Shown here piece after piece: positions 13,782 to 52,577 of a DNA stretch of 64,000 nt. A model generated the notes under the pieces. It saw nothing but the letters and a program-made list of their open reading frames with translations. It made no database searches and had not been told where the DNA came from. This stretch comes from an uncultured Gemmatimonadaceae bacterium (GTDB lineage: Bacteria > Gemmatimonadota > Gemmatimonadetes > Longimicrobiales > RSA9), in the NCBI GenBank assembly GCA_964430275.1, contig CAYSGF010000027.1, positions 8,133 to 72,132 of the forward strand, in the 5' to 3' direction. Position numbers and translations under genes: made by a program. Within the stretch, counting starts at the first letter, position 1; each line of letters begins with the position of its first letter.

Positions 13782-14396
13782 TCAGCCGCGGAAGCGCGCG
13801 CCCTCTCGCCGGAGCGCGGCCGGCAGCCGAGTCAGGGCGAGCTCTGCCACCAGCAGGTCATCGGCATCGAACGGTCCCCGCGCGAAGCCGCGCAGCAGGC
13901 TCAGCACCACCGTACGCCGGTCCAGAACCGTCGGTGCGACCAGCACATGCACGCACCCCGCAAGGGCTGGCGGGCCGTCTGCCGGGCAGGCGTCGAGCAG
14001 TCGCAGCAGCGCGGTGGACGTCGTTGAGAACAGCAGGGATTCGCGGCGCTGCGCACATTCCCGCAGCGGATGCCCGTCCGGCAGGGAGCCGAAGCGAAGG
14101 CCGTGCGCGCCGGCAAACGCTTCCGTCTCGCCGCGTCGCACGGCCGCATGGATGACGCAGCGGTCGGCCAGCGCCGGGACGAGCGCCGCGCGCAGCGCGG
14201 AGAACGACTCGGCCAGCGACGCCGCACGCGCGATCCGGCGGCTTGCATTCGCGACGATCAGAAAACGACGGCCCTCGTCCTGCTCGCGTGGTCGATCCGC
14301 TCGTATCAGCTGCAGCCGTGCCGCCCTCGTAAGCTCTCCGACGGGGCTGCCCATGCCCTCTTCGCGGGCGCCGCCGTCTACGGCCGTCGTGCTCAT
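13782..14396 (-). CDS. hypothetical protein, GAF-like pattern
   Basis: Best-looking ORF in this interval. The sequence pattern loosely resembles a GAF domain. No firm family call. Confidence 0.5.
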   Translation of the reverse strand: MSTTAVDGGAREEGMGSPVGELTRAARLQLIRADRPREQDEGRRFLIVANASRRIARAASLAESFSALRAALVPALADRCVIHAAVRRGETEAFAGAHGLRFGSLPDGHPLRECAQRRESLLFSTTSTALLRLLDACPADGPPALAGCVHVLVAPTVLDRRTVVLSLLRGFARGPFDADDLLVAELALTRLPAALRREGARFRG

Positions 14397-32333: not shown

Positions 32334-32336
32334 ACC

Positions 32337-32461
32337 CGGACCATGATTGACTGTTCACTTTTGGCCGTATCGAGCATGCCTCGTTTTGGGCGCTTTCCCT
32401 GCGACCGGCCTGCACTCGTGGGATGGCGCCAACGGCCAAAAGTGAACAGTCAATCATGGTC
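32337..32461. repeat. REP doublet (REPIN-like): two perfect 30-nt inverted copies separated by 65 bp
   Basis: GGACCATGATTGACTGTTCACTTTTGGCCG at 32337-32366 and its exact reverse complement at 32432-32461. It sits between convergent genes and shares the ends GGACCATGATTGA...TTGGCC with the repeats flanking the RAYT gene at 44836 and 45845. Confidence 0.9.
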
Positions 32462-32986
32462 CGGAGTCGGGGTCCGCAGCGTGAACCACGACTGGCGCAC
32501 GATGGCGATGACGCCCCAGGCGAGGGCCGCGGCGACCGCAAAGTCGATGATGCCGCGCCAGGGCTCCGGGAGCCGGCTGACGGTGAGCACGGCGGCGATG
32601 ATGGCGGTGACGCCGGCCCAGGGGCGAGCGACGCCGCGGGCAGAGGGCGCGACGAGCCCCATGGCGAAGAGCGGCGCGAGCACGCGCAGGTCGCGACGCG
32701 GCTCGGTCTGCAGGGCGGCGGACCGAGCCACGGCGCGAGGCACCCATCGGCGGGCGAGGCCGAGGATTCCTTCGCCGTAAACGAACGCGGCGGTGAGGAC
32801 GAGGAACACGACCCACTCGCCGGTGGTAAGTCCTGCGCGTAACGTGGCAATGCCGCGCCCACCCAGGCGCAGGACGGCGCTGAGGAAGAGCAGCACGAGG
32901 CCGGCAACGGCCCACCAGGACGCGAGCTTCACCGCCGAATCCTGCCGGTGCGGCCGTTCAGCCACAAGACCGGCTCGGCAGTTCAC
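32450..32986 (-). CDS. hypothetical membrane protein (about 4 TM helices)
   Basis: Hydrophobic helices throughout. Start uncertain: ATG 32986 or GTG 32932 (AGGA upstream). The last four codons and the stop (PDHD*) are encoded by the REP sequence. Confidence 0.5.
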   Translation of the reverse strand: MNCRAGLVAERPHRQDSAVKLASWWAVAGLVLLFLSAVLRLGGRGIATLRAGLTTGEWVVFLVLTAAFVYGEGILGLARRWVPRAVARSAALQTEPRRDLRVLAPLFAMGLVAPSARGVARPWAGVTAIIAAVLTVSRLPEPWRGIIDFAVAAALAWGVIAIVRQSWFTLRTPTPDHD

Positions 32987-37862: not shown

Positions 37863-37971
37863 CAGATTCGTCGCATCGCTGACGCTGTGCTCATGCCGGG
37901 TTCATCCTCCATGGGAGACGTCCGGTTTCCGGCGTTTGTCGAGTAACGCGGGTTCGTGGCGTCTGCAGGCT

Positions 37972-38254
37972 GCCGGTACAACATCTTCACCACGGAGCCC
38001 GCGGAGCGCACACAGTCATCATTCGCTGAAGACGAAGACTGCGCGGGCGTGCCCGGCGATACCGACGCCTGCTCGTGATCACCATCCGCATTTTTTTCTG
38101 TCAACATACGGCTGCGAACGTTCCGTGCGCGTCGTCGCCAGCCCGGCGGGTCACCAACCAGGAAGCCCGGTCCCTGCTCGACCCCGCAGATACGTCCTCC
38201 GCCGCGAACCCTCTGCGTGCTCCGCGCGCTCCGTGGTGAAAACGCTGTTCCGGC
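37972..38254. repeat. MITE-like element, copy 1 (about 283 bp, long terminal inverted repeats)
   Basis: Left arm GCCGGTACAACATCTTCACCACGGAGCCCGCGGAGCGCAC (37972-38011) is the inverted match of the right arm GTGCTCCGCGCGCTCCGTGGTGAAAACGCTGTTCCGGC (38217-38254). The interior aligns with copy 2 at 42313-42580 (shared core TCAACAyACGGCyGCGAACGTTCsGTGCGCG). Confidence 0.8.
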
Positions 38255-38344
38255 ACGCTGACACGCCGAGCACGCCGAGCACGCCGACGCGCCCGCCAGG
38301 TGCGAGCCCGGCCTGACCGCGAGACCGGGCCCGCACTCTCACCC

Positions 38345-42643: not shown

Positions 42644-44767
42644 TCACCAATTCGCAAGATGCCGCTCGAGAAAGTCTGCCGTCGCCTCGTTCACCCGCAC
42701 CCAGTTCGCGTGGCGCAGGAAGTGATGCGTATCGTCGGGGATGATGAGCGTCTCGAAATGTACGTCGGTGTCCTCGAGCCGCCGGGCGAGGTCGACGGTT
42801 TCGGAGAAGCGGACATTACGGTCGTCGTCGCCGTGGATGAGCAGCACCGGCGAGCGCCAGCTGTCGATGTAGGCGATCGGCGACGACGTCCACCCGATCT
42901 CGGCCGCGCGTTCGCGGTCCGTCGGCTCGTAGCGCTCGGCCGGCCCGACGAAGCGATCCGCGTAGTTGTGCACGCCGTGGATGTCGACGCCGGCGGCGAC
43001 CAGGTCGGACTCGCGCGCGAGTGCCATCGCGGTCAGGTACCCGCCATAGGACCCGCCCCACACGCCGATCCGCTCGTCATCGACCTGCGCCAGCGATTGC
43101 AGGTACTCGCCCGCTGCGACGATGTCGCGGTACTCCGATGCCCCGCGCGAGCCGGCACTGTCCGGGAAATGGAAGTCGTAGCCGTAGCCGATGCCGAGCC
43201 GGTAGTTCACCGACAGCGCCACGAAGCCGCGACTCGCGAAGTACTGCTGCGCTGCGTAGGCGTTCGCGTAGTAGTCGGAGTAATGCCAGCCGGCGAGCAT
43301 CTGCCGCGGCGGCCCGCCATGGATGAAGATGACGGCCGGCCTGGGACCGTCCGAGCCGCCGCGCTCGAAGACCTGGCCGTAAACGGTGACGCCGTCGCTC
43401 GCCTCGAACGTCACGCTCCTCGGAACGACGAGCTGCTGCGTCGGAAAGTCGGCGGGGATGCGATCCTGCGCGAGCCAGGTCACGTCGCCGCCCGACGCAG
43501 GCATGACGGCCGGAAGGGGCGGGCGCTGCGCCGTCGCACCGATGAACGCGATCGACGCACCGTCACCCGTGACGACGGGCCCCCATTCCAGCCCCGTCCC
43601 GGGCGTGAGCACCTCCGGCGCCGCGCGATCCACCGGAACCTTCACGACGTGCCGGCGGTCGACGTCGCCGGGGGTCGTCCCCGCGTTCGCCGCGAACACG
43701 AGGAAGCGGCCGTCGCGCGACAGCGAAATCTGCTCCGCCATGTACTCGCCGGGCGTGAGCAGCAGCGGCTCGCCGCCCTGCTCCGTGATCGAGTACAGGT
43801 GCGGCCACCCGTCCACATACGAGACGAACACGATGCGGTCGCCTGCCGCATAGTGCAGGTTCGTGCCCCCCTGGGTGGAAGGCGACGACCCGCGCAGCGT
43901 TTCCGGTGCGCGCCACAGCTCCCGTGCCTCGCCAGTCCGCGCGTCCGCGCTCCACACGGCCCAGCGCTGGTGCGTGCGCTCGAGGATCGGATCCGGCGGC
44001 CCGCCGCGTCCCGCCCGGCGCACGAACGCGATGCGCTCACTGTCCGGTGACCAGCGCGGCGATGCGTCGCGATCCGTGCTCGGCGCAATCCACAGGATCG
44101 GCGTCGTGCCGTCCTGGTAGACCCCGATGAATGCATGATCGCCGCGGCTCGAGACGAACGCGACGCGCGCGCCGTCGGGGGAGAAGCGGGCGTCGCCGTT
44201 CACGCCACGCGCGAAGAAGAGCTGCGTCGCGTCCGCGGAGCCGTCGATCGGTACCGACCAGATCTGTCGATTGCGCTCGAAGAGCACGACGTCACTCGCC
44301 GGGGAGATCACCGGACCGTCGCCGCCCTCCGCCAGCGCGCGTGCGGTTCCCCCCTCGAACGGCGCCGCCCACAGCTCGATCTTCGGGCGCATCGGCAGGG
44401 ACGCGGCGTTTACGCCGGCCAGGCCCCAGTTGTCCTCGTCCCAGTTCGCGTCGTCGCCGCCGCGCCGGAACACCACCCAGCGGCCGTCCGGCGAGAGCTG
44501 CACGCGTGAGAGCATCTGACCGTCGTCGCTATCGAACGACGTCAGCTTGCGCGCCTCCCAGTGCGGGCCTTCCGCGACGTAGATGTTGCGGCGGCCTTCC
44601 TCGTTGAATGCCCACGCGATTCGCTGACCCGTCGGCGCCGCCGCGAGCTCGTTCGGGAACGGGTAGCTCCTGACCTGCTCCATCGTGAAGGAGACGCTCT
44701 GGCCGGCGACCGGCAGCGCCATCGCCAGGCCGAGCACGAGCATGGAGAGCACGCGCGTCTTCGTCAT
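42644..44767 (-). CDS. S9 family peptidase (prolyl oligopeptidase/dipeptidyl-peptidase type with beta-propeller)
   Basis: Start moved to ATG 44767 (signal MTKTRVLSMLVLGLAMALPVAGQ). TolB-like propeller repeats. Catalytic GGSYGG and a C-terminal HGDDD...H triad region. Confidence 0.9.
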   Translation of the reverse strand: MTKTRVLSMLVLGLAMALPVAGQSVSFTMEQVRSYPFPNELAAAPTGQRIAWAFNEEGRRNIYVAEGPHWEARKLTSFDSDDGQMLSRVQLSPDGRWVVFRRGGDDANWDEDNWGLAGVNAASLPMRPKIELWAAPFEGGTARALAEGGDGPVISPASDVVLFERNRQIWSVPIDGSADATQLFFARGVNGDARFSPDGARVAFVSSRGDHAFIGVYQDGTTPILWIAPSTDRDASPRWSPDSERIAFVRRAGRGGPPDPILERTHQRWAVWSADARTGEARELWRAPETLRGSSPSTQGGTNLHYAAGDRIVFVSYVDGWPHLYSITEQGGEPLLLTPGEYMAEQISLSRDGRFLVFAANAGTTPGDVDRRHVVKVPVDRAAPEVLTPGTGLEWGPVVTGDGASIAFIGATAQRPPLPAVMPASGGDVTWLAQDRIPADFPTQQLVVPRSVTFEASDGVTVYGQVFERGGSDGPRPAVIFIHGGPPRQMLAGWHYSDYYANAYAAQQYFASRGFVALSVNYRLGIGYGYDFHFPDSAGSRGASEYRDIVAAGEYLQSLAQVDDERIGVWGGSYGGYLTAMALARESDLVAAGVDIHGVHNYADRFVGPAERYEPTDRERAAEIGWTSSPIAYIDSWRSPVLLIHGDDDRNVRFSETVDLARRLEDTDVHFETLIIPDDTHHFLRHANWVRVNEATADFLERHLANW

Positions 44768-44835
44768 CGCACACCTGCGTGAGGGGGACCTGCCGCGGAG
44801 ATTGCGACGACGGAGCGAACCCCGCAAGCACAACC

Positions 44836-45845
44836 GGACCATGATTGATCTTTGCGCGTTGGCCGGTCTCGCCATTCCAGCGCCCCGGGAGGCCAGCCAG
44901 GTTCCGACCATGAGCCGCGTCATCCGCCATCAGCAGCCGGGGTGTGTATTTCACATCACGTCCCGAACCCAGGGCCACGAGCCATGGTTTACCGCTAATC
45001 TGCGCGGTCCGGTTGTCAGCATGATCGTGGACGGCGTAGCGTCAGCCGGCGCGGCACTCATCGCGTATGCCGTTATGCCCAACCATCTCCACATAATTCT
45101 GGCGCAGGGACATCAGACTCTCGGCTGGACGCTGCAGCCGATCCTTCGACGCATCGCGCTGCTCGTACAGCGCGCTCACGGCGTGACCGGGCATGTTTTC
45201 GAGCGACGGTTCCGCAGCAAACCCTGCCTGGATCAGGATTACGTCCGGACAGCGGTTCTTTATACGCACTTCAATCCTGTCAAGGCGGGAATCTGCTCGA
45301 GCATACACGACTACTCCTGGACGTCGCATCCGGCATACTGTTCGGAGGGAGAGGCGTTCCAGGGCATCATTCCGGATGACGCGCTCCGACTCTTCGCAGC
45401 CGACGGTCGATGCACCAGTCGTGACGAGCTGCGCAGAGATTATCTGGCGCACGTCGACGCCTGGCAGCGCGTGCTGCGCGTATCCAGCGCGCCCCCCTCG
45501 TTGCCACCTCCGAACGGCAGCTCATTCTTTGCCCAACGCTTCTGCACACAACTCGACCATCCCCACACGCTGGCAAGGATCGATCTGCGAGACCGTGCAC
45601 AGCGAATTCTGCAGTCGATCGCACGCGACTGCGACCTCGACCTGCTGCGCGGCTCGTACGTCGGTCGACATGCAGCCGAAATACGACGCCAACTGATCGC
45701 CGCCCTTCTCACGGCGGACTATCCGGGCAGCGCTATCGCACACTTCTTCAAGATCAGCCCTTCCGTCGTATCGCGGATCAGCACGCAGATGCGCTGGCAC
45801 CGGTCATAGATGAATAGGCCAAAACGCAAAGTTCAATCATGGTCC
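44836..45845 (+). mobile_element. RAYT unit: REP-associated tyrosine transposase gene flanked by inverted REPs
   Basis: Left REP GGACCATGATTGATCTTTGCGCGTTGGCC (44836-44864). Right REP GGCCAAAACGCAAAGTTCAATCATGGTCC (45817-45845) is its inverted near-copy. The interior is visibly lower in GC than its surroundings. Confidence 0.85.
44910..45809 (+). CDS. REP-associated tyrosine transposase (IS200/IS605 Y1 HUH family) with C-terminal DnaA-C-like HTH
   Basis: Start moved to ATG 44910. HUH motif MPNHLHIIL, FERRFRSK, and catalytic-Tyr region YTHFNPVKAG. The C-terminal ~70 aa resemble the DnaA domain IV HTH. Confidence 0.85.
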   Translation: MSRVIRHQQPGCVFHITSRTQGHEPWFTANLRGPVVSMIVDGVASAGAALIAYAVMPNHLHIILAQGHQTLGWTLQPILRRIALLVQRAHGVTGHVFERRFRSKPCLDQDYVRTAVLYTHFNPVKAGICSSIHDYSWTSHPAYCSEGEAFQGIIPDDALRLFAADGRCTSRDELRRDYLAHVDAWQRVLRVSSAPPSLPPPNGSSFFAQRFCTQLDHPHTLARIDLRDRAQRILQSIARDCDLDLLRGSYVGRHAAEIRRQLIAALLTADYPGSAIAHFFKISPSVVSRISTQMRWHRS

Positions 45846-45901
45846 GGGTCCGCAACTTGCCCAGATCAGGCCGGGCCCACAAACGCCAGTCAGGAGCACG
45901 C

Positions 45902-46654
45902 ATGTACCTGCAGGACCGCACTGCAATCGTTACGGGCGCAGCATCCGGTATCGGCCGCGCAATTGCCCTCGCCTATGCACGGGAAGGGGCGCACGTCATC
46001 GTCTCCGATATCGATGAGAAGGGCGGCCAGGAGACCGTCCGCCTGATCGACCAGGCGACGCCCGGCTCGAAGTCCCTGTTCGCCCGCGCCGACGCTGCCA
46101 GCCCCGAGGATCACGAGCGCCTGGTGCAGACCGCGCTCGACCAGTTCGGCGCACTGCACATTGCGTGTAACAACGCAGGCATCGGCGGTGAGCTGAAGCC
46201 GGTCGGTGAGCTCAGCATCGATGGCTGGCGTAAGGTCATCGAGATCAATCTGTCCGGTGTGTTCTACGCCATGCGCGCACAGATTCCGCGCATGCTCGAC
46301 GCAGGCGGCGGTGTGATCGTGAACATGGCATCGGTGCTCGGACAGGTGGGATCGGCGACGGCATCCGGCTACGCCGCTGCGAAGCACGGAGTGGTGGGCC
46401 TCACGCAGACCGCTGCAATCGAGTACGCCGCGCAGGGTATCCGCATCAACACGGTCGGTCCGGGTTATATCGACACGCCCCTGCTCGAATCACTCCCGAC
46501 GGACGCGCGCAATGCGCTGGTCGAGCTCCACCCGATCGGCCGGCTCGGCACTGCCGAGGAGGTCGCCGAGCTCGTCCTGTGGCTGAGCAGTGATGCGGCG
46601 AGCTTCGTGACCGGGGCCTACTATCGCGTCGATGGCGGCTACCTCGCGCGGTAG
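45902..46654 (+). CDS. SDR family oxidoreductase
   Basis: AGGAG at 45891-45895. TGAASGIGRA cofactor motif, NNAG, and catalytic YxxxK (YAAAKHG). Confidence 0.9.
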   Translation: MYLQDRTAIVTGAASGIGRAIALAYAREGAHVIVSDIDEKGGQETVRLIDQATPGSKSLFARADAASPEDHERLVQTALDQFGALHIACNNAGIGGELKPVGELSIDGWRKVIEINLSGVFYAMRAQIPRMLDAGGGVIVNMASVLGQVGSATASGYAAAKHGVVGLTQTAAIEYAAQGIRINTVGPGYIDTPLLESLPTDARNALVELHPIGRLGTAEEVAELVLWLSSDAASFVTGAYYRVDGGYLAR

Positions 46655-47938: not shown

Positions 47939-49261
47939 TCAGGCGGGGCACAGCCACACCTGGCCGGTCGGCGCGTTCGGGTTGAGGTTGCACTCGCTCG
48001 TGGGAATCGGCAGCCATGGATACTTCAACGGCTCGCCGAATCGACGCTGATCCTCGTAGTGCAGGCCCAACAGGTACAGCTCGTAGCGGCGCTGCCGGAA
48101 GATCTCGTCCAGCACTTCCTCCTGCGTGGAGTGCGTGACGATCGTGATCTCGTCGAGGCACGGCATCGGCTCCTCGGGATCATCACCCGCCGCGCACTGC
48201 GTGCGGACCTCGTTGATCAGGTCGATCGCCTCAGGCAGCTGATTGTTGCGCGCGAAGATCTCCGCCTGGATCAGCCGGATCTCGTCGTACGTGTACGCCG
48301 GAATCGGCGGATTCGCCGATGGCCCGTAACTCGCCAGCGAGTCCATCGGAGCCACGGCCCCTGGCACATCGTCCGCGACGACCCAGAAATCGACCCGCTC
48401 GTCACCTGCTTCGGCTTCGAGACGGAACGTCTGCTCGGGCCTCATCTGATACGCGTTCTGCGATCGGTACATGATGTTGAAGATCGGATTGCCATCGGAG
48501 CTGGAGAATCGGAACTCGGATGTTGCGGTCGGATCCACGCGCTGCGCCCCGGCCGCCGCCTGTGCCAGATCGCCTGCCGACAGCGCGTAGCGGGCAATCA
48601 TCGCCTCGATCGTGTTCTCCAGGTCGAACCCGTCGGCAACTACATCCGCATTGAACTCGTCGGATGCCGGCGTGGCGGCCAGCTCCTGGCGCGCCTCGTT
48701 CAGCAGACGCAGTGCTTCCTCGAGCGCAGCCTGCCGGCTCACGAACGCAGCTTCCGGGTTGTCCAGCCCGGTCGAGATCGGCAGCTGCTCGTAAAGGTAG
48801 GCGAGGTTCCCGATCGCCATGGCCTTGTAGAGCTTCGCCAGCGCCGAGAGACCCGACGCCGTACCCGGCACGAAGTCGACGTTCGGAATCGCCGCAAGCA
48901 GCTCGTTCGCGAGCGTGACTACCCGGTACATCCCGATCCAGGGATCGTTCGCGATGCCAGTCGTGGGCAGATCCAGCACGTTGCCGGCATCCGCATTCTG
49001 GTAGTTCGCAAACGACGCCGAACCCGCGCCGATCTCGTCCGATACCAGACCCACGCTGGTGATGTACCAGCCGAGCTGATTGCTGTACTCGGCCTGCAGG
49101 CCGACGCCCAGCGATTTCACACCCGCCGGATTGTTGAGTGTCACCTCCGCAGACGGAAAGTTCGGATCGACCAGGTCCAGGTTGCACGCGGTCGTGGACC
49201 CGGCCAGGGCAATTGTCAGTGCGAGCGTTGCGCGTCGCATCTTCATGATTGGCATCCTCAT
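47939..49261 (-). CDS. RagB/SusD family nutrient-binding outer-membrane lipoprotein
   Basis: Lipobox GSTTAC. SusD-like helical body. It lies directly downstream of the SusC-like gene. The start may be a later Met (49246), which has GAGGA upstream. Confidence 0.85.
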   Translation of the reverse strand: MRMPIMKMRRATLALTIALAGSTTACNLDLVDPNFPSAEVTLNNPAGVKSLGVGLQAEYSNQLGWYITSVGLVSDEIGAGSASFANYQNADAGNVLDLPTTGIANDPWIGMYRVVTLANELLAAIPNVDFVPGTASGLSALAKLYKAMAIGNLAYLYEQLPISTGLDNPEAAFVSRQAALEEALRLLNEARQELAATPASDEFNADVVADGFDLENTIEAMIARYALSAGDLAQAAAGAQRVDPTATSEFRFSSSDGNPIFNIMYRSQNAYQMRPEQTFRLEAEAGDERVDFWVVADDVPGAVAPMDSLASYGPSANPPIPAYTYDEIRLIQAEIFARNNQLPEAIDLINEVRTQCAAGDDPEEPMPCLDEITIVTHSTQEEVLDEIFRQRRYELYLLGLHYEDQRRFGEPLKYPWLPIPTSECNLNPNAPTGQVWLCPA

Positions 49262-49262
49262 G

Positions 49263-52184
49263 TCAGTAGCTCATCCGCACGCCGAAGGTGAACTGGCGCG
49301 GAATCGGATAGACGGCGAAGTCAGTCCCCCGCTCGACGGTGTTCGTGCCGAACATGTTGATCTCGGGATCGTAGCCCGTGTAGTCGGTCCACGTGTACAG
49401 GTTCCGGCCGCCGACTTCCACCTGCGCAGTGCTGACCCCGAGGCCACTCACCATGTCGGAGATGTCGTAGGTGACATTCAGCTGACGGAGCTTCACGTAC
49501 GAGGCATCCTCGACGTACGGCTCGAACATGCCCTGGATACGCGTCTTCGTGTCATTCGAGATGTCGCCGCGGTCACGGGCCTCGGCGAGCGGGCCCGCCT
49601 GGAAGAGGTCCATGATGCGGACCGTCTGATTCCACATATCGTGACCGAACATGCCGTCGAGCAGGAAGTTCACGCGCAAATTGCGTCCAATCCGGAAGTC
49701 GTTCAGCAGGGAGCCCTGCCAGTCCGGGTTCGGATCACCGATGTACAGCGACGTCGGTGCGCGGACCGGCCCGATTTCATCGGTCACGATTCGGCCATTG
49801 TCGTCACGCAGGTAGCCGGAGTTGAAGAAGACACCCAGGGGCTTGCCTTCCGCCACTCGATTCAGGTACCCCACCGTGAAGTCGCCACCCGCAAGCGTCA
49901 CGACTTCATTGCGGTTGCGCGAGTAGTTCGCGGTCGCGTTCCAGCCGAAGCTCTCCCCGTCCATGATGACGCCGGTGAGCTGCAGCTCCAGCCCCTTGTT
50001 CGTCATCTCGCCGACATTGTCCAGGATCGACGTGTAGCCGGTGCTGGGTGCGAACACGCGCGACAGCAGCAGGTCCTCGATGAACTGGTCGTAGTACGTG
50101 AACGCGATTCCAACGCGATCATCGAGCACCGACGCGTCAAAACCAGCCTCCCATTCGCGCTGGCGTTCCGGCTTCAGGTTCAGATTGCCGGGATTGCCGA
50201 GGTGCGTGAGCCCCGTGCGATCGATGTTGATCGTGTTCTGGTAGCGGGGGAATCGCGCATATGCCGACCCGGTTGGCGGCTGGTTGCCCGCGTAGCCGAG
50301 TGCGCCGCGAACCCGGAAGTTCGTGAACAGGTTGCCCAGCCCGCCATCAGCGAAGAAGGACTCCTCGGAGACCACCCAGGAGCCGCTCAGCTTCGGATAC
50401 AGCTGCCAGCGCTCGTCGTCACCGAACGTGGACGACGCGTCCCAGCGAAGCGCACCCGTCAGGAAAAGGCGGTCGTTGAACGCGACCTGCTGCTGTCCGA
50501 AGAACCCGAGTGTGGCTGTCTCGAATCGACTCTGCGACACGAACTGGTTCGCACCGCGCGCCAGATCCACGAACAGCGGAAGGTCCGTGACGACCGCACT
50601 CACGTTCTCTTCGTGCGTGTACGTGTGATTCATCCCTGCGGTCGTCGTCAGGCCGATGCTCTCGCCGGCACCGAACCGATAATTGGCTATCAGGTCGTTG
50701 TTGACGAGATACTGGTTGCGCGCCACATCGTTCGACTCGCCCAGCGGCTGTGCGGGCGTACCGCGCGGTATGTAGAGCCGCGTCTGCATGTCGTATGTGT
50801 CGTAGCCGAACCGGTAGTCGAGACTGAGATTCGTGATCGGCGTCGCCCGCGCCTGGAACGAGCCCACGAAGCGGCTCACGTTCTGTGGCGTCAGCCAGTT
50901 CTCCACCACCTCGAGCGGATTCGGGAACGTCGTTGCACGCACCACGAACTCGCCCGTGACCGGGTCGCGCTCGGAAAAGTCAACCGTCGTCGGCGTGAAC
51001 ACGATCGCCGTCAGCAGACCGCCGCGCCCCTGCTCGCCGTTGATGACCAGGTCGCTCTCGGAGCGGATGTAGTTCGCACCACCCGATAGCGTCAGCCAGT
51101 CGCCCAGCCCCTGCTCCAGGTTCAGCCGCACACTCTTCCGCTCATTGTTCGAGCCGATCATGATCCCGTTGTCGACGGTGTAGCCGCCGGACAGGAAGTA
51201 GCGCGTCTGATCCGCACCGCCCGAAACAGACACGTACGTGTCGCTGCCCCAGCTGTCGTCGAAGATCAGGTCCTCGTGATTGAACCGCTCGACCGGCGTG
51301 CCCGTAGCGTCCGTCGGCGCCATGTTCCATGGCAGCTCGCTCGCGAGCTGGCCCAGTGTCGCGCGCGTCTCGACCGTGATCACCGGACGGCCGGCCGCCC
51401 CGCGCTTCGTGAAGATCTGAACCACGCCATTGTTCGCACGCGAGCCGTACAGCGCCGCAGCTGCCGCGCCCTTCAGCACTTCGATGCGTTCGATATCGTT
51501 GGGGTTCAGATCGGAGAGGCGGTTCGAAGGATTCGAGCGGTAACCGAAATTGATCTGCTGGTCCGATCCATTATCGACAATCACGCCGTCGATAATGTAG
51601 AGCGGCTCCGCGCCGCCCGTAATCGAGCTCGTGCCCCGAAGCCGAACCGACACACCGCCACCCGGTGTGCCGCTGTTCGTCATGACCTGCGCGCCGGCCA
51701 CCTTGCCCGAGAGCGCCGCGTCGATCGTCACCGCGTTCGACCGGGTAAGCTCCGGACCGCCCACCACTGCGACGGAGTTTCCCAGCGCACGCCGCTGCGT
51801 CGGTGCACCCGTACCCGTCACGACGATGCCCTCCAGCGTCACCGCGGATTCGCGCAGCGCGATCTGCGGCACCTCTACCGTACGCTCCGTGCCAAGCGTC
51901 ACTTCCTGCGTCGCCTCGCCCCGCCCGATCAGCGAATAGCTCAGCGAATACGTACCCGCAGGCAGCCGCGCCTGAAGTGAAAATCGGCCCGACTGGTCCG
52001 TCAGCGTGCCGAATTGCGTGCCTGACACCGTGACCGCCACGGATGCCAGCGGCCGCTCCGTCGCCTGGTCGACGACGGTGCCGTTGATGATGTAGGCCTG
52101 GCTCGCCTGTCCTGCTGCTGGCGCGGCTACAGCCGCACTGAGCAGCACGAGCAGCGCGAAGCTCGTTGATCGCCCGGCAAACAT
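49263..52184 (-). CDS. SusC/RagA family TonB-linked outer-membrane transporter
   Basis: Start moved to ATG 52184 (GAGGTGG RBS). Signal peptide, CarboxypepD_reg domain (INGTVVDQATERPLASVAVTV), TonB plug (IDGVIVDN), and a C-terminal barrel ending in aromatic residues. Confidence 0.9.
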   Translation of the reverse strand: MFAGRSTSFALLVLLSAAVAAPAAGQASQAYIINGTVVDQATERPLASVAVTVSGTQFGTLTDQSGRFSLQARLPAGTYSLSYSLIGRGEATQEVTLGTERTVEVPQIALRESAVTLEGIVVTGTGAPTQRRALGNSVAVVGGPELTRSNAVTIDAALSGKVAGAQVMTNSGTPGGGVSVRLRGTSSITGGAEPLYIIDGVIVDNGSDQQINFGYRSNPSNRLSDLNPNDIERIEVLKGAAAAALYGSRANNGVVQIFTKRGAAGRPVITVETRATLGQLASELPWNMAPTDATGTPVERFNHEDLIFDDSWGSDTYVSVSGGADQTRYFLSGGYTVDNGIMIGSNNERKSVRLNLEQGLGDWLTLSGGANYIRSESDLVINGEQGRGGLLTAIVFTPTTVDFSERDPVTGEFVVRATTFPNPLEVVENWLTPQNVSRFVGSFQARATPITNLSLDYRFGYDTYDMQTRLYIPRGTPAQPLGESNDVARNQYLVNNDLIANYRFGAGESIGLTTTAGMNHTYTHEENVSAVVTDLPLFVDLARGANQFVSQSRFETATLGFFGQQQVAFNDRLFLTGALRWDASSTFGDDERWQLYPKLSGSWVVSEESFFADGGLGNLFTNFRVRGALGYAGNQPPTGSAYARFPRYQNTINIDRTGLTHLGNPGNLNLKPERQREWEAGFDASVLDDRVGIAFTYYDQFIEDLLLSRVFAPSTGYTSILDNVGEMTNKGLELQLTGVIMDGESFGWNATANYSRNRNEVVTLAGGDFTVGYLNRVAEGKPLGVFFNSGYLRDDNGRIVTDEIGPVRAPTSLYIGDPNPDWQGSLLNDFRIGRNLRVNFLLDGMFGHDMWNQTVRIMDLFQAGPLAEARDRGDISNDTKTRIQGMFEPYVEDASYVKLRQLNVTYDISDMVSGLGVSTAQVEVGGRNLYTWTDYTGYDPEINMFGTNTVERGTDFAVYPIPRQFTFGVRMSY

Positions 52185-52577
52185 TGCCACCTCATGGTAT
52201 GGGTAGTTGATGCGCATGATTCTCGAAGATGCTGCGCAGGAACATCTTATCGGGCTTTACGCTGTGCTCGATGACGCTCCCGCGCAAGAGTGACGTCCCG
52301 GCGCGCCTCGCCATTGCAGCGCCCCATGATGCCTTGCGCTCGACGATCGAGCAACAGGCCAGGCGCAGAATAACATGCGCGCGCGCGATATCGCGCAAGC
52401 GCCCTGTTGCCATCGCATCGCTGCGTGTGGCGTGCGTACTCGACGCGGACACGGCCGCCACGGTGATTCGGCGCACATCGCCGCCCTCAATGAACGTTTC
52501 AACAGCGGTTCGACGGACGATCGCAGCGGGCACCGTTCGACCGACCCGCCGATCCGGCCAGTCGCAGTCCACCAGCG

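Follow-up and report, generated by a model that had tools for sequence, protein, structure and literature searches.

Within the 64-kb stretch of DNA analysed here (64,000 nt in all, hereafter the window), positions 44834–45847 form a unit of 1,014 bp that contains a single real gene, coding for a protein with a Y1 HUH nuclease domain and a predicted C-terminal DNA-binding domain, and that ends on both sides in terminal inverted repeats (TIRs; Table 1). The unit occupies a divergent intergenic region, between a Peptidase_S9 gene on the minus strand (start at 44767, leaving 66 nt to the left repeat) and a short-chain dehydrogenase (SDR) gene (start at 45902, leaving 54 nt to the right repeat), and a gene-less doublet of repeats with the same outer ends lies elsewhere in the window. 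An earlier note on this DNA had described the gene as a repetitive extragenic palindromic (REP)-associated tyrosine transposase (RAYT) flanked by inverted REPs, with a C-terminus resembling domain IV of DnaA. The present analysis favours a different reading for the unit as a whole, namely that of a TIRtron, a mobile-element-like unit built of a TIRYT gene and its own TIRs. The earlier impression of a less GC-rich interior is borne out: the unit has a GC content of 61.3%, compared with a window mean of 67.9% (standard deviation 2.3 over windows of equal size, 0.16% of which are as low), and GC at third codon positions (GC3) is 71% in the gene versus 80–89% in the two adjacent genes.

Table 1 Features of the candidate TIRtron and of its gene-less partner, in window positions (pLDDT, predicted local distance difference test; HTH, helix-turn-helix; MITE, short for miniature inverted-repeat transposable element; REPIN, REP doublet forming a hairpin)
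Feature	Position	Strand	Description
Left TIR	44834–44864		31 nt, CCGGACCATGATTGATCTTTGCGCGTTGGCC; outer end 76 nt upstream of the ATG
Probable TIRYT gene	44910–45809	+	299 aa; stop TAG 45807–45809; AlphaFold2 model with mean pLDDT 90.7
N-terminal Y1 HUH nuclease domain	44910–45344	+	approximately residues 1–145; HUH H59-L-H61, presumed catalytic Y118 (YTHFNP), conserved Y135/S139
C-terminal five-helix DNA-binding domain (predicted)	45573–45806	+	approximately residues 222–299; HTH at approximately residues 253–298
Right TIR	45817–45847		31 nt; begins 7 nt past the stop codon
Second copy of the terminal motif	45847–45853		abuts the right TIR, GGTCCG followed by GGTCCGC at 45841–45853; membership in the element uncertain
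Gene-less TIR doublet (MITE/REPIN-like)	32336–32464		129 nt; perfect 33-nt arms 32336–32368 and 32432–32464; spacer 63 nt

The mechanically longest open reading frame (ORF) at the locus, 44685–45809, includes both Y1 HUH motifs that the earlier note had pointed out (MPNHLHIIL, within AVMPNHLHIIL, and YTHFNPVKAG), and the C-terminal stretch quoted there is likewise found in the protein. If the GTG at 44685 is taken as the start, translation crosses the left repeat. An alignment with 74 homologues, which shows a conserved N-terminus (MxRxxRxHxPG) with an almost invariant M1, upholds the choice of ATG 44910 made in the earlier note, and on this alignment the annotated ORF start should be shifted from 44685 to 44910. 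The resulting protein is predicted to consist of two functional modules with a helical linker between them.

Several lines of evidence place the first module. Across the 75 family sequences, H59 and H61 (MPNHLHII), Y118 and N122 are invariant; Y118 opens the signature Y-x3-N-P (Y118-T-H-F-N122-P) and is aligned by the family profile with the Tyr of YIYINP in 4er8, and at least 90% of the sequences conserve Y135 and S139 (Y-x-W-[ST]-S). Class 2 TnpA-Y1 proteins are characterized by the signature Y-x-x-x-N-P, with a serine motif after the Tyr in subclasses 2.1, 2.2, 2.3 and 2.6 (PMC6006769), so that Y118-x3-N-P together with Y135/S139 fits both the class 2 signature and the downstream serine motif. 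The NCBIfam model REP_Tyr_transpos (NF047646) matches residues 5–137 at E = 2.4e-17, over profile positions 3–145 of 146, and the family profile finds IS200-type TnpA structures and 4ER8 (E. coli TnpA-REP) in the Protein Data Bank (PDB). Pfam Y1_Tnp, one of two families for which the earlier note had proposed a profile check, is matched by 75 of 75 relatives at E ≤ 0.1 (best 1.6e-9), the match of the protein itself staying below threshold; the other, Bac_DnaA_C, is not matched at all, as detailed below. In the AlphaFold2 model built from the 75-sequence alignment (predicted template modelling score, pTM, 0.74), the top Foldseek match in the PDB is 4er8_A (E = 3.3e-7, 156 columns, TM 0.69 normalised to the target), a REP-associated tyrosine transposase with a bound REP hairpin. 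ISDra2, IS200, IS608 and Sulfolobus TnpA follow, and every one of the best 30 PDB matches is a Y1 transposase. By its sequence and its predicted fold, the protein therefore belongs to the RAYT (TnpA-REP) branch of Y1 HUH enzymes, and to this extent the earlier identification of a RAYT-type enzyme holds.

The second module is a DNA-binding extension that, as had been observed before, is missing from the classic (165-aa) E. coli RAYT. By sequence, the domain is a transposase-type HTH, HTH_23/Pax-like in character. Among the 75 family members, Pfam detects HTH_23 in 63, HTH_38 in 34, and PAX, HTH_28 and Trp_repressor in 13 each; Bac_DnaA_C appears in 0 of 75, and the C-terminus of the window protein gives a weak HTH_38 match. 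A profile of the isolated domain, searched against the PDB, leads to the Pax paired domain, DeoR, a LuxR-type regulator and Tn3 resolvase, and none of the five DnaA sequences in the PDB set was matched. Comparison by hhalign with E. coli DnaA domain IV (identical in sequence to 1J1V) yielded a probability of 0.2%, and comparison with a four-species alignment of DnaA domain IV, built from PDB alignments, a probability of 1% (E = 0.055) over 21 columns, in the register that the earlier note had seen. Searches of related loci with hidden Markov models (HMMs) for DnaA homology were negative, as was a Pfam scan for Bac_DnaA_C in five Y1 proteins that are more distantly related and have long C-termini. 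Against 1.84 billion representative proteins, the C-terminal HMM returned 635 matches at E ≤ 0.001, far fewer than expected if DnaA were matched; the best 150 of these, all TIRYT-type, reach no DnaA protein and are mostly proteins of ~300 aa that end in this domain, the rest being shorter fragments and a few tandem-repeat proteins. With Pfam (75 members), both hhalign comparisons and the HMM searches all negative, DnaA homology by sequence was rejected. As an observation in its own right, the HTH profile matches P0133 (740 aa), P0202 (689 aa), P0244 (511 aa), P0197 and P0245 in 5–10 tandem stretches each, which means that proteins built of repeated copies of this HTH type exist.

The predicted fold tells a different story. 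When the isolated domain is modelled by AlphaFold2 (pLDDT 84, five helices), the top Foldseek match is 3pvp_B, the DNA-binding domain of M. tuberculosis DnaA on box DNA (probability 0.98, TM 0.66, root-mean-square deviation (rmsd) 1.9 Å, 67 columns; E = 0.5, for a small domain), and 3pvp_A follows at TM 0.67; matches to resolvase, DeoR, TrpR and MarR stay at TM ~0.3–0.5 or cover the three-helix core only. Against 3PVP and 1J1V, the five-helix topology superposes over 67–72 of 82 residues (TM 0.66–0.67, rmsd 1.9–2.5 Å), and the weak hhalign alignments are colinear in register. What differs from DnaA domain IV is that the sequence similarity is not significant by any of the above measures, that the DnaA-invariant DHTTV is replaced here by S-x-x-x-V-S, and that the TIR is unlike a DnaA box. 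A Bacillota family of ~263-aa Y1+HTH proteins has a C-terminus that aligns with the Gemmatimonadota domain at a probability of 63% (E = 7e-5) and with DnaA domain IV colinearly over 56 columns at a probability of 2.6%. Judged from the models, the likeness to DnaA domain IV appears real in topology and is unproven as homology. The earlier suggestion of a DnaA-like C-terminus thus has some backing from the fold and from a published precedent, Bac_DnaA_C-like C-termini in Y1 subclass 2.1 (PMC6006769), but none from sequence and profile; a failed profile–profile comparison with DnaA, which the earlier note itself had named as evidence against its suggestion, is formally what was found (hhalign, 0.2–1%).

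The repeats that enclose the gene were examined in the same way. The two arms are complementary at 28 of 31 positions (90%), which makes them 2 bases longer than the 29 nt first described, and they do share a 13-nt end with the doublet, as the earlier note had recognised: the window contains exactly four copies of the 13-mer GGACCATGATTGA, at 32338+, 32450−, 44836+ and 45833−. The exact shared outer stretch is the 15-mer CCGGACCATGATTGA, which is also present four times in the 64 kb, twice per unit and at the ends only, compared with a chance expectation of ~1e-4 for a specific 15-mer. All four arms additionally share an inner TTGGCC, and the ~10 nt in between differ. Calling these repeats REPs, as the earlier note did, is not supported. 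Folded singly as DNA with their flanks, the window arms show no extra stability over shuffled sequences (z from +0.08 to +1.82), and 36 arms (40 nt each) from 18 related elements have a mean z of +0.11, with none below −2 and no hairpin found in the terminal 40 nt. Since single arms fold no better than shuffled sequences, they lack the short palindrome by which a REP is defined, and folding of the 36 arms rules out the REP-hairpin reading. The GTAG (or CGTC) tag was looked for as well, and the arm reading CCGGACCATGATTGA... contains no GTAG. The arms are plain terminal inverted repeats, not REPs.

The doublet listed in the earlier note at 32337 does exist as a gene-less repeat pair, starting 2 nt past the stop codon of a Na/Pi-cotransporter gene. 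Consisting of two TIRs without a gene, it is probably a cognate non-autonomous partner of the gene-bearing unit. Folded as a whole, the doublet reaches −55.7 kcal/mol (z −12) with a 33-bp perfect stem, and in having two inverted units in one long hairpin it agrees with the definition of a REPIN; it departs from that definition in that its units are non-palindromic rather than REPs and that the window holds one doublet rather than a large population. A 178-aa ORF on the minus strand (32450–32986, no Pfam match) has its stop codon (TCA, 32450–32452) inside the right arm of the doublet; if this ORF is real, insertion of the doublet supplied or replaced the end of a gene.

To place the unit in a wider context, relatives were collected. 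Full-length relatives in species-representative genomes come nearly all from metagenome-assembled genomes (MAGs) of Gemmatimonadota (Gemmatimonadales and Longimicrobiales), the exceptions being two contigs, one of 2.6 kb with the label Thermomicrobiales and one without classification. At most of 17 loci, and on two metagenome contigs (L081 and L082, encoding proteins 66% and 59% identical to the query), inverted repeats of ~18–44 nt lie on both sides of the gene; no TIRs were found at two of the 17 loci (L005 and L009). The outer TIR end lies ~75 nt upstream of the ATG in these relatives (76 nt in the window unit) and the terminus reads (G/C)CGGACC, a few starting with GGGCC. In 18 elements, no target-site duplication and no directly repeated flanking sequence could be seen. 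The 66%-identical relative has the terminal 14-mer in common with the window unit and is surrounded by other genes, and the 59%-identical one adjoins rplU-rpmA. Several MAGs encode two or three divergent paralogues each (L001/L007, L002/L014, L005/L011/L013 and L016/L017), 33–46% identical to the query; wherever TIRs were found (L005 having none), every paralogue comes with a matched pair of its own, which suggests protein–TIR specificity. A second gene-less doublet was detected at 14395–14600 of L014, ~3.3 kb from its cognate TIRYT gene, with tandemly duplicated termini (30-nt period on the left, 19-nt on the right). Further afield, Sphaerochaeta sp. UBA6084 encodes ~288-aa Y1 proteins (L024 and L025) with a related C-terminal domain (E = 6e-6 and about 1e-7 to 2e-7), so that the Y1–HTH fusion is not limited to one phylum. 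An exact-pattern scan for the repeat in 185,579 species-representative genomes gave no match, nor did scans of JGI metagenomes with the TIR pattern and the doublet pattern, and a plasmid collection yielded only distant matches to the N-terminal domain. At the related locus L010 (~905–927), two tandem copies of GGGGACACCGC stand directly outside the left CGGACC terminus; the GGGGACAC of this locus, just outside the left TIR, fits GGGGWSAS, a motif published for TIRYT repeats and otherwise absent from the clade.

Units of this kind have been described before. Di Nocera, De Gregorio & Rocco (2013) reported RAYT-like genes with long TIRs unrelated to GTAG REPs, introducing the name TIRYT for the proteins and TIRtron for the units (PMC3733652). 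According to the same study, the TIRs often lie at a constant distance from the gene and many, a majority but not all, carry the motif GGGGWSAS; gene-less TIR families, moderately abundant and often dimeric, occur in some genomes, and several TIRYTs with different TIRs are possible in one genome (PMC3733652). In the classification of the Y1 superfamily by Quentin et al. (2018), TIRYTs correspond to subclass 2.1 (group 2.1.2) and are among the longest members; their C-termini are Bac_DnaA_C-, HTH_23- or HTH_28-like, no REPs are found near their genes, and the subclass is present in ~15% of the strains surveyed (PMC6006769). The unit at 44834–45847 fits the published TIRYT description in all tested respects except GGGGWSAS. 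We therefore consider it likely, at a probability of roughly 80%, that the unit is a TIRtron, that is, a single TIRYT gene (TnpA-Y1 subclass 2.1) between 31-nt imperfect TIRs.

A number of points weigh against this assignment. The scores of the protein fall short of the family cutoffs, at 20.8 bits for Pfam Y1_Tnp (gathering cutoff 23 bits) and 63.2 bits for NF047646 (equivalog cutoff 80 bits). GGGGWSAS is absent from the window TIRs, and the terminus is (G/C)CGGACC across the clade. The placement in subclass 2.1 is provisional, having been made from shared features. One gene copy and one doublet are all that the 64-kb window holds, and 1.3 Mb of related loci contain few gene-less copies beyond the second doublet mentioned above. 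Binding of the TIRs by the HTH is something that we infer, and Quentin et al. (2018) left TIR recognition by the C-terminal domain open (PMC6006769). Finally, the literature searched holds no experiments on TIRYT activity, the class having been described computationally (PMC3733652, PMC6006769).

Among the alternatives, a classical REPtron would consist of a RAYT gene between inverted REPs, with the doublet at 32336 as a REPIN from a genome-wide REP population. That E. coli TnpA-REP is the nearest match of the core domain, that the two flanking repeats are inverted as in REPtrons, and that the doublet makes a REPIN-like long hairpin just past a stop codon, like many REPs, would all be in keeping with this view, and JGI pipelines label relatives accordingly ('REP element-mobilizing transposase RayT'). 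The single arms, however, are non-palindromic (z ~0; 0 of 36 below −2) and carry no GTAG, and only four arm copies exist in 64 kb. The protein is nearly twice as long as a classical RAYT, has an HTH that those proteins lack and scores under the NCBIfam equivalog cutoff, and the literature separates exactly such a configuration from REPtrons (PMC3733652, PMC6006769). A REPtron is thus very improbable. The chances are slimmer still for an ordinary insertion sequence of the IS200/IS605 family, to which the weak Pfam Y1_Tnp match, the fold matches to IS608, ISDra2 and IS200 TnpA and the lack of a target duplication could point: members of that family have subterminal hairpins and no TIRs, the reverse of what is seen here, and their TnpA proteins of ~130–150 aa have no HTH extension, whereas Y-x3-N-P and the best fold match indicate the class 2 (TnpA-REP) branch; moreover, no tnpB is found with the unit.

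It is also conceivable, if improbable, that the gene is domesticated or immobile, a vertically inherited host nuclease or regulator whose repeats are operator or regulatory sites or relics, with the doublet serving as a bidirectional terminator or mRNA-stabilising hairpin. RAYTs generally behave as single-copy, vertically inherited genes (PMC5581495), and the gene is a single copy in the window, gene-less copies being very sparse in related loci; it is intact in many lineages at 35–70% identity, which implies long-term purifying selection, and the position of the doublet 2 nt past a stop codon would suit a terminator. Such a host function would, however, leave unexplained why relatives 59–66% identical sit in unrelated neighbourhoods, why GC and GC3 are clearly under the host level, and why genomes hold several divergent paralogues with matching TIR pairs. 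A terminator would moreover have no reason to share its 15-nt terminus with the TIRs of the gene, and a promoter and terminator pattern scan of the unit (44600–46000, the doublet region lying outside it) returned nothing useful and no intrinsic-terminator-like site.

If the unit is a TIRtron, its transposition, which we infer from sequence comparisons, could proceed as follows. The HTH would recognise the TIR as a duplex, either as a normal helix at the unit ends or as the 33-bp stem of a single-stranded folded doublet, and the outermost conserved CGGACC would be the likely core of the recognition site. The HUH/Tyr domain would then be placed at the repeat boundary, where it would nick one strand and rejoin it via a 5'-phosphotyrosine, a step that we model on IS608 TnpA and on E. 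coli TnpA-REP acting at hairpins. No target-site duplication would be made, and the enzyme would work in trans on doublets.

Sequences just outside the TIRs may bear on the choice of target. In addition to the copy of the terminal motif that abuts the right TIR of the gene-bearing unit (Table 1), the doublet has an extra copy in the same orientation at 32471–32476, 7 nt outside its right TIR. When all 36 flanks were considered, the element's own terminal 6-mer was found, in the same orientation, no more than 30 nt beyond the TIR in 5 of them, compared with 0.60 expected (Poisson P = 4e-4, post hoc); these flanks belong to both window elements, L006, L015 and L017. The inverted orientation is not enriched (1 versus 0.6 expected in the 36 flanks). 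Leaving out the two window flanks, the count is 3 of 32 versus ~0.5 expected (P ~0.02 by our own estimate), and L014 and L017, with their tandemly duplicated ends, are in line with this. The excess could reflect a preference for insertion beside end-like sequence, or a duplication of ends during insertion. A more specific proposal, which we advance tentatively and regard as unlikely, combines the two domains in a hybrid recognition mode: the DnaA-IV-like HTH, bound to the duplex TIR or the doublet stem, would deliver the single-strand nuclease, and insertion would take place beside mimics of the terminal hexamer. If true, the terminal-hexamer mimic would be the target rule for TIRYT elements, with the TTAC target rule of IS608 as a loose analogue. 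To our knowledge, such a hybrid mode has not been shown for any HUH transposase.

Some other features of the window were noted in passing. No Rfam family was matched in a search of the whole window. Another inverted repeat (37966–38015 and 38211–38260), with 50-nt arms that are 80% complementary, encloses 195 nt including a T-rich stretch; it is unrelated in sequence to the TIRs and could represent another kind of small element, or else a regulatory region. The only other stretch of the window as GC-poor as the unit (~61–62%), at ~48850–50260, spans two adjacent long minus-strand ORFs (47939–49261 and 49263–52217) that resemble, by eye, a lipoprotein and TonB-dependent receptor pair of the SusC/SusD type.

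For annotation, these results mean that it is misleading to label genes of this type 'RayT/REP'. Within the HUH/Y1 superfamily, TIRYTs make up a large branch, whose biochemistry is untouched as far as the literature was searched, and the unit offers a compact, intact example, with a confident model, clean TIRs, a cognate doublet and ~20 natural variants that show conserved TIR positions. It is relevant to the questions of how a single-strand nuclease handles TIRs and whether a DnaA-like HTH reads them.

Bacterial MITEs are normally moved by DDE transposases and accompanied by target-site duplications. The doublet resembles them in being non-coding and in having TIRs that match those of a gene-bearing unit, but no duplication is seen here, the partner enzyme is a Y1 HUH protein, and the inner arm halves differ between the doublet and the gene-bearing unit. 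With the TnpA proteins of IS608 and ISDra2, the protein shares the HUH/Y1 fold, the presumed 5'-phosphotyrosine chemistry on single-stranded DNA and the lack of target-site duplication; these elements belong to a different Y1 class and have subterminal hairpins and asymmetric ends, without TIRs or an HTH. E. coli TnpA-REP (4ER8) is the best match for the nuclease domain, with HUH and Y-x3-N-P in common, and REPtrons and REPINs share the inverted flanking repeats and the non-autonomous doublet that folds into a long hairpin, whereas the arms here are non-palindromic and without GTAG, repeat abundance appears low, and the protein has an extra 150 residues including the HTH and does not reach the NCBIfam equivalog cutoff. 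The closest agreement is with the TIRYT/TIRtron systems: a RAYT-like Y1 gene is flanked by long TIRs, not REP hairpins, at a fixed distance from the coding sequence; the protein is longer than RAYTs, with a C-terminal HTH of the HTH_23 type and a serine motif after the Tyr; and there are occasional gene-less TIR dimers and multiple TIRYT genes per genome with TIRs of their own. Differences lie in the terminus, (G/C)CGGACC here versus GGGGWSAS in the published majority, and in the hosts, Gemmatimonadota MAGs that the main text of Quentin et al. (2018) does not mention (PMC6006769). Read as a TIRtron, the unit is a Gemmatimonadota, CGGACC-type addition to the already described TIRYT/TIRtron class.

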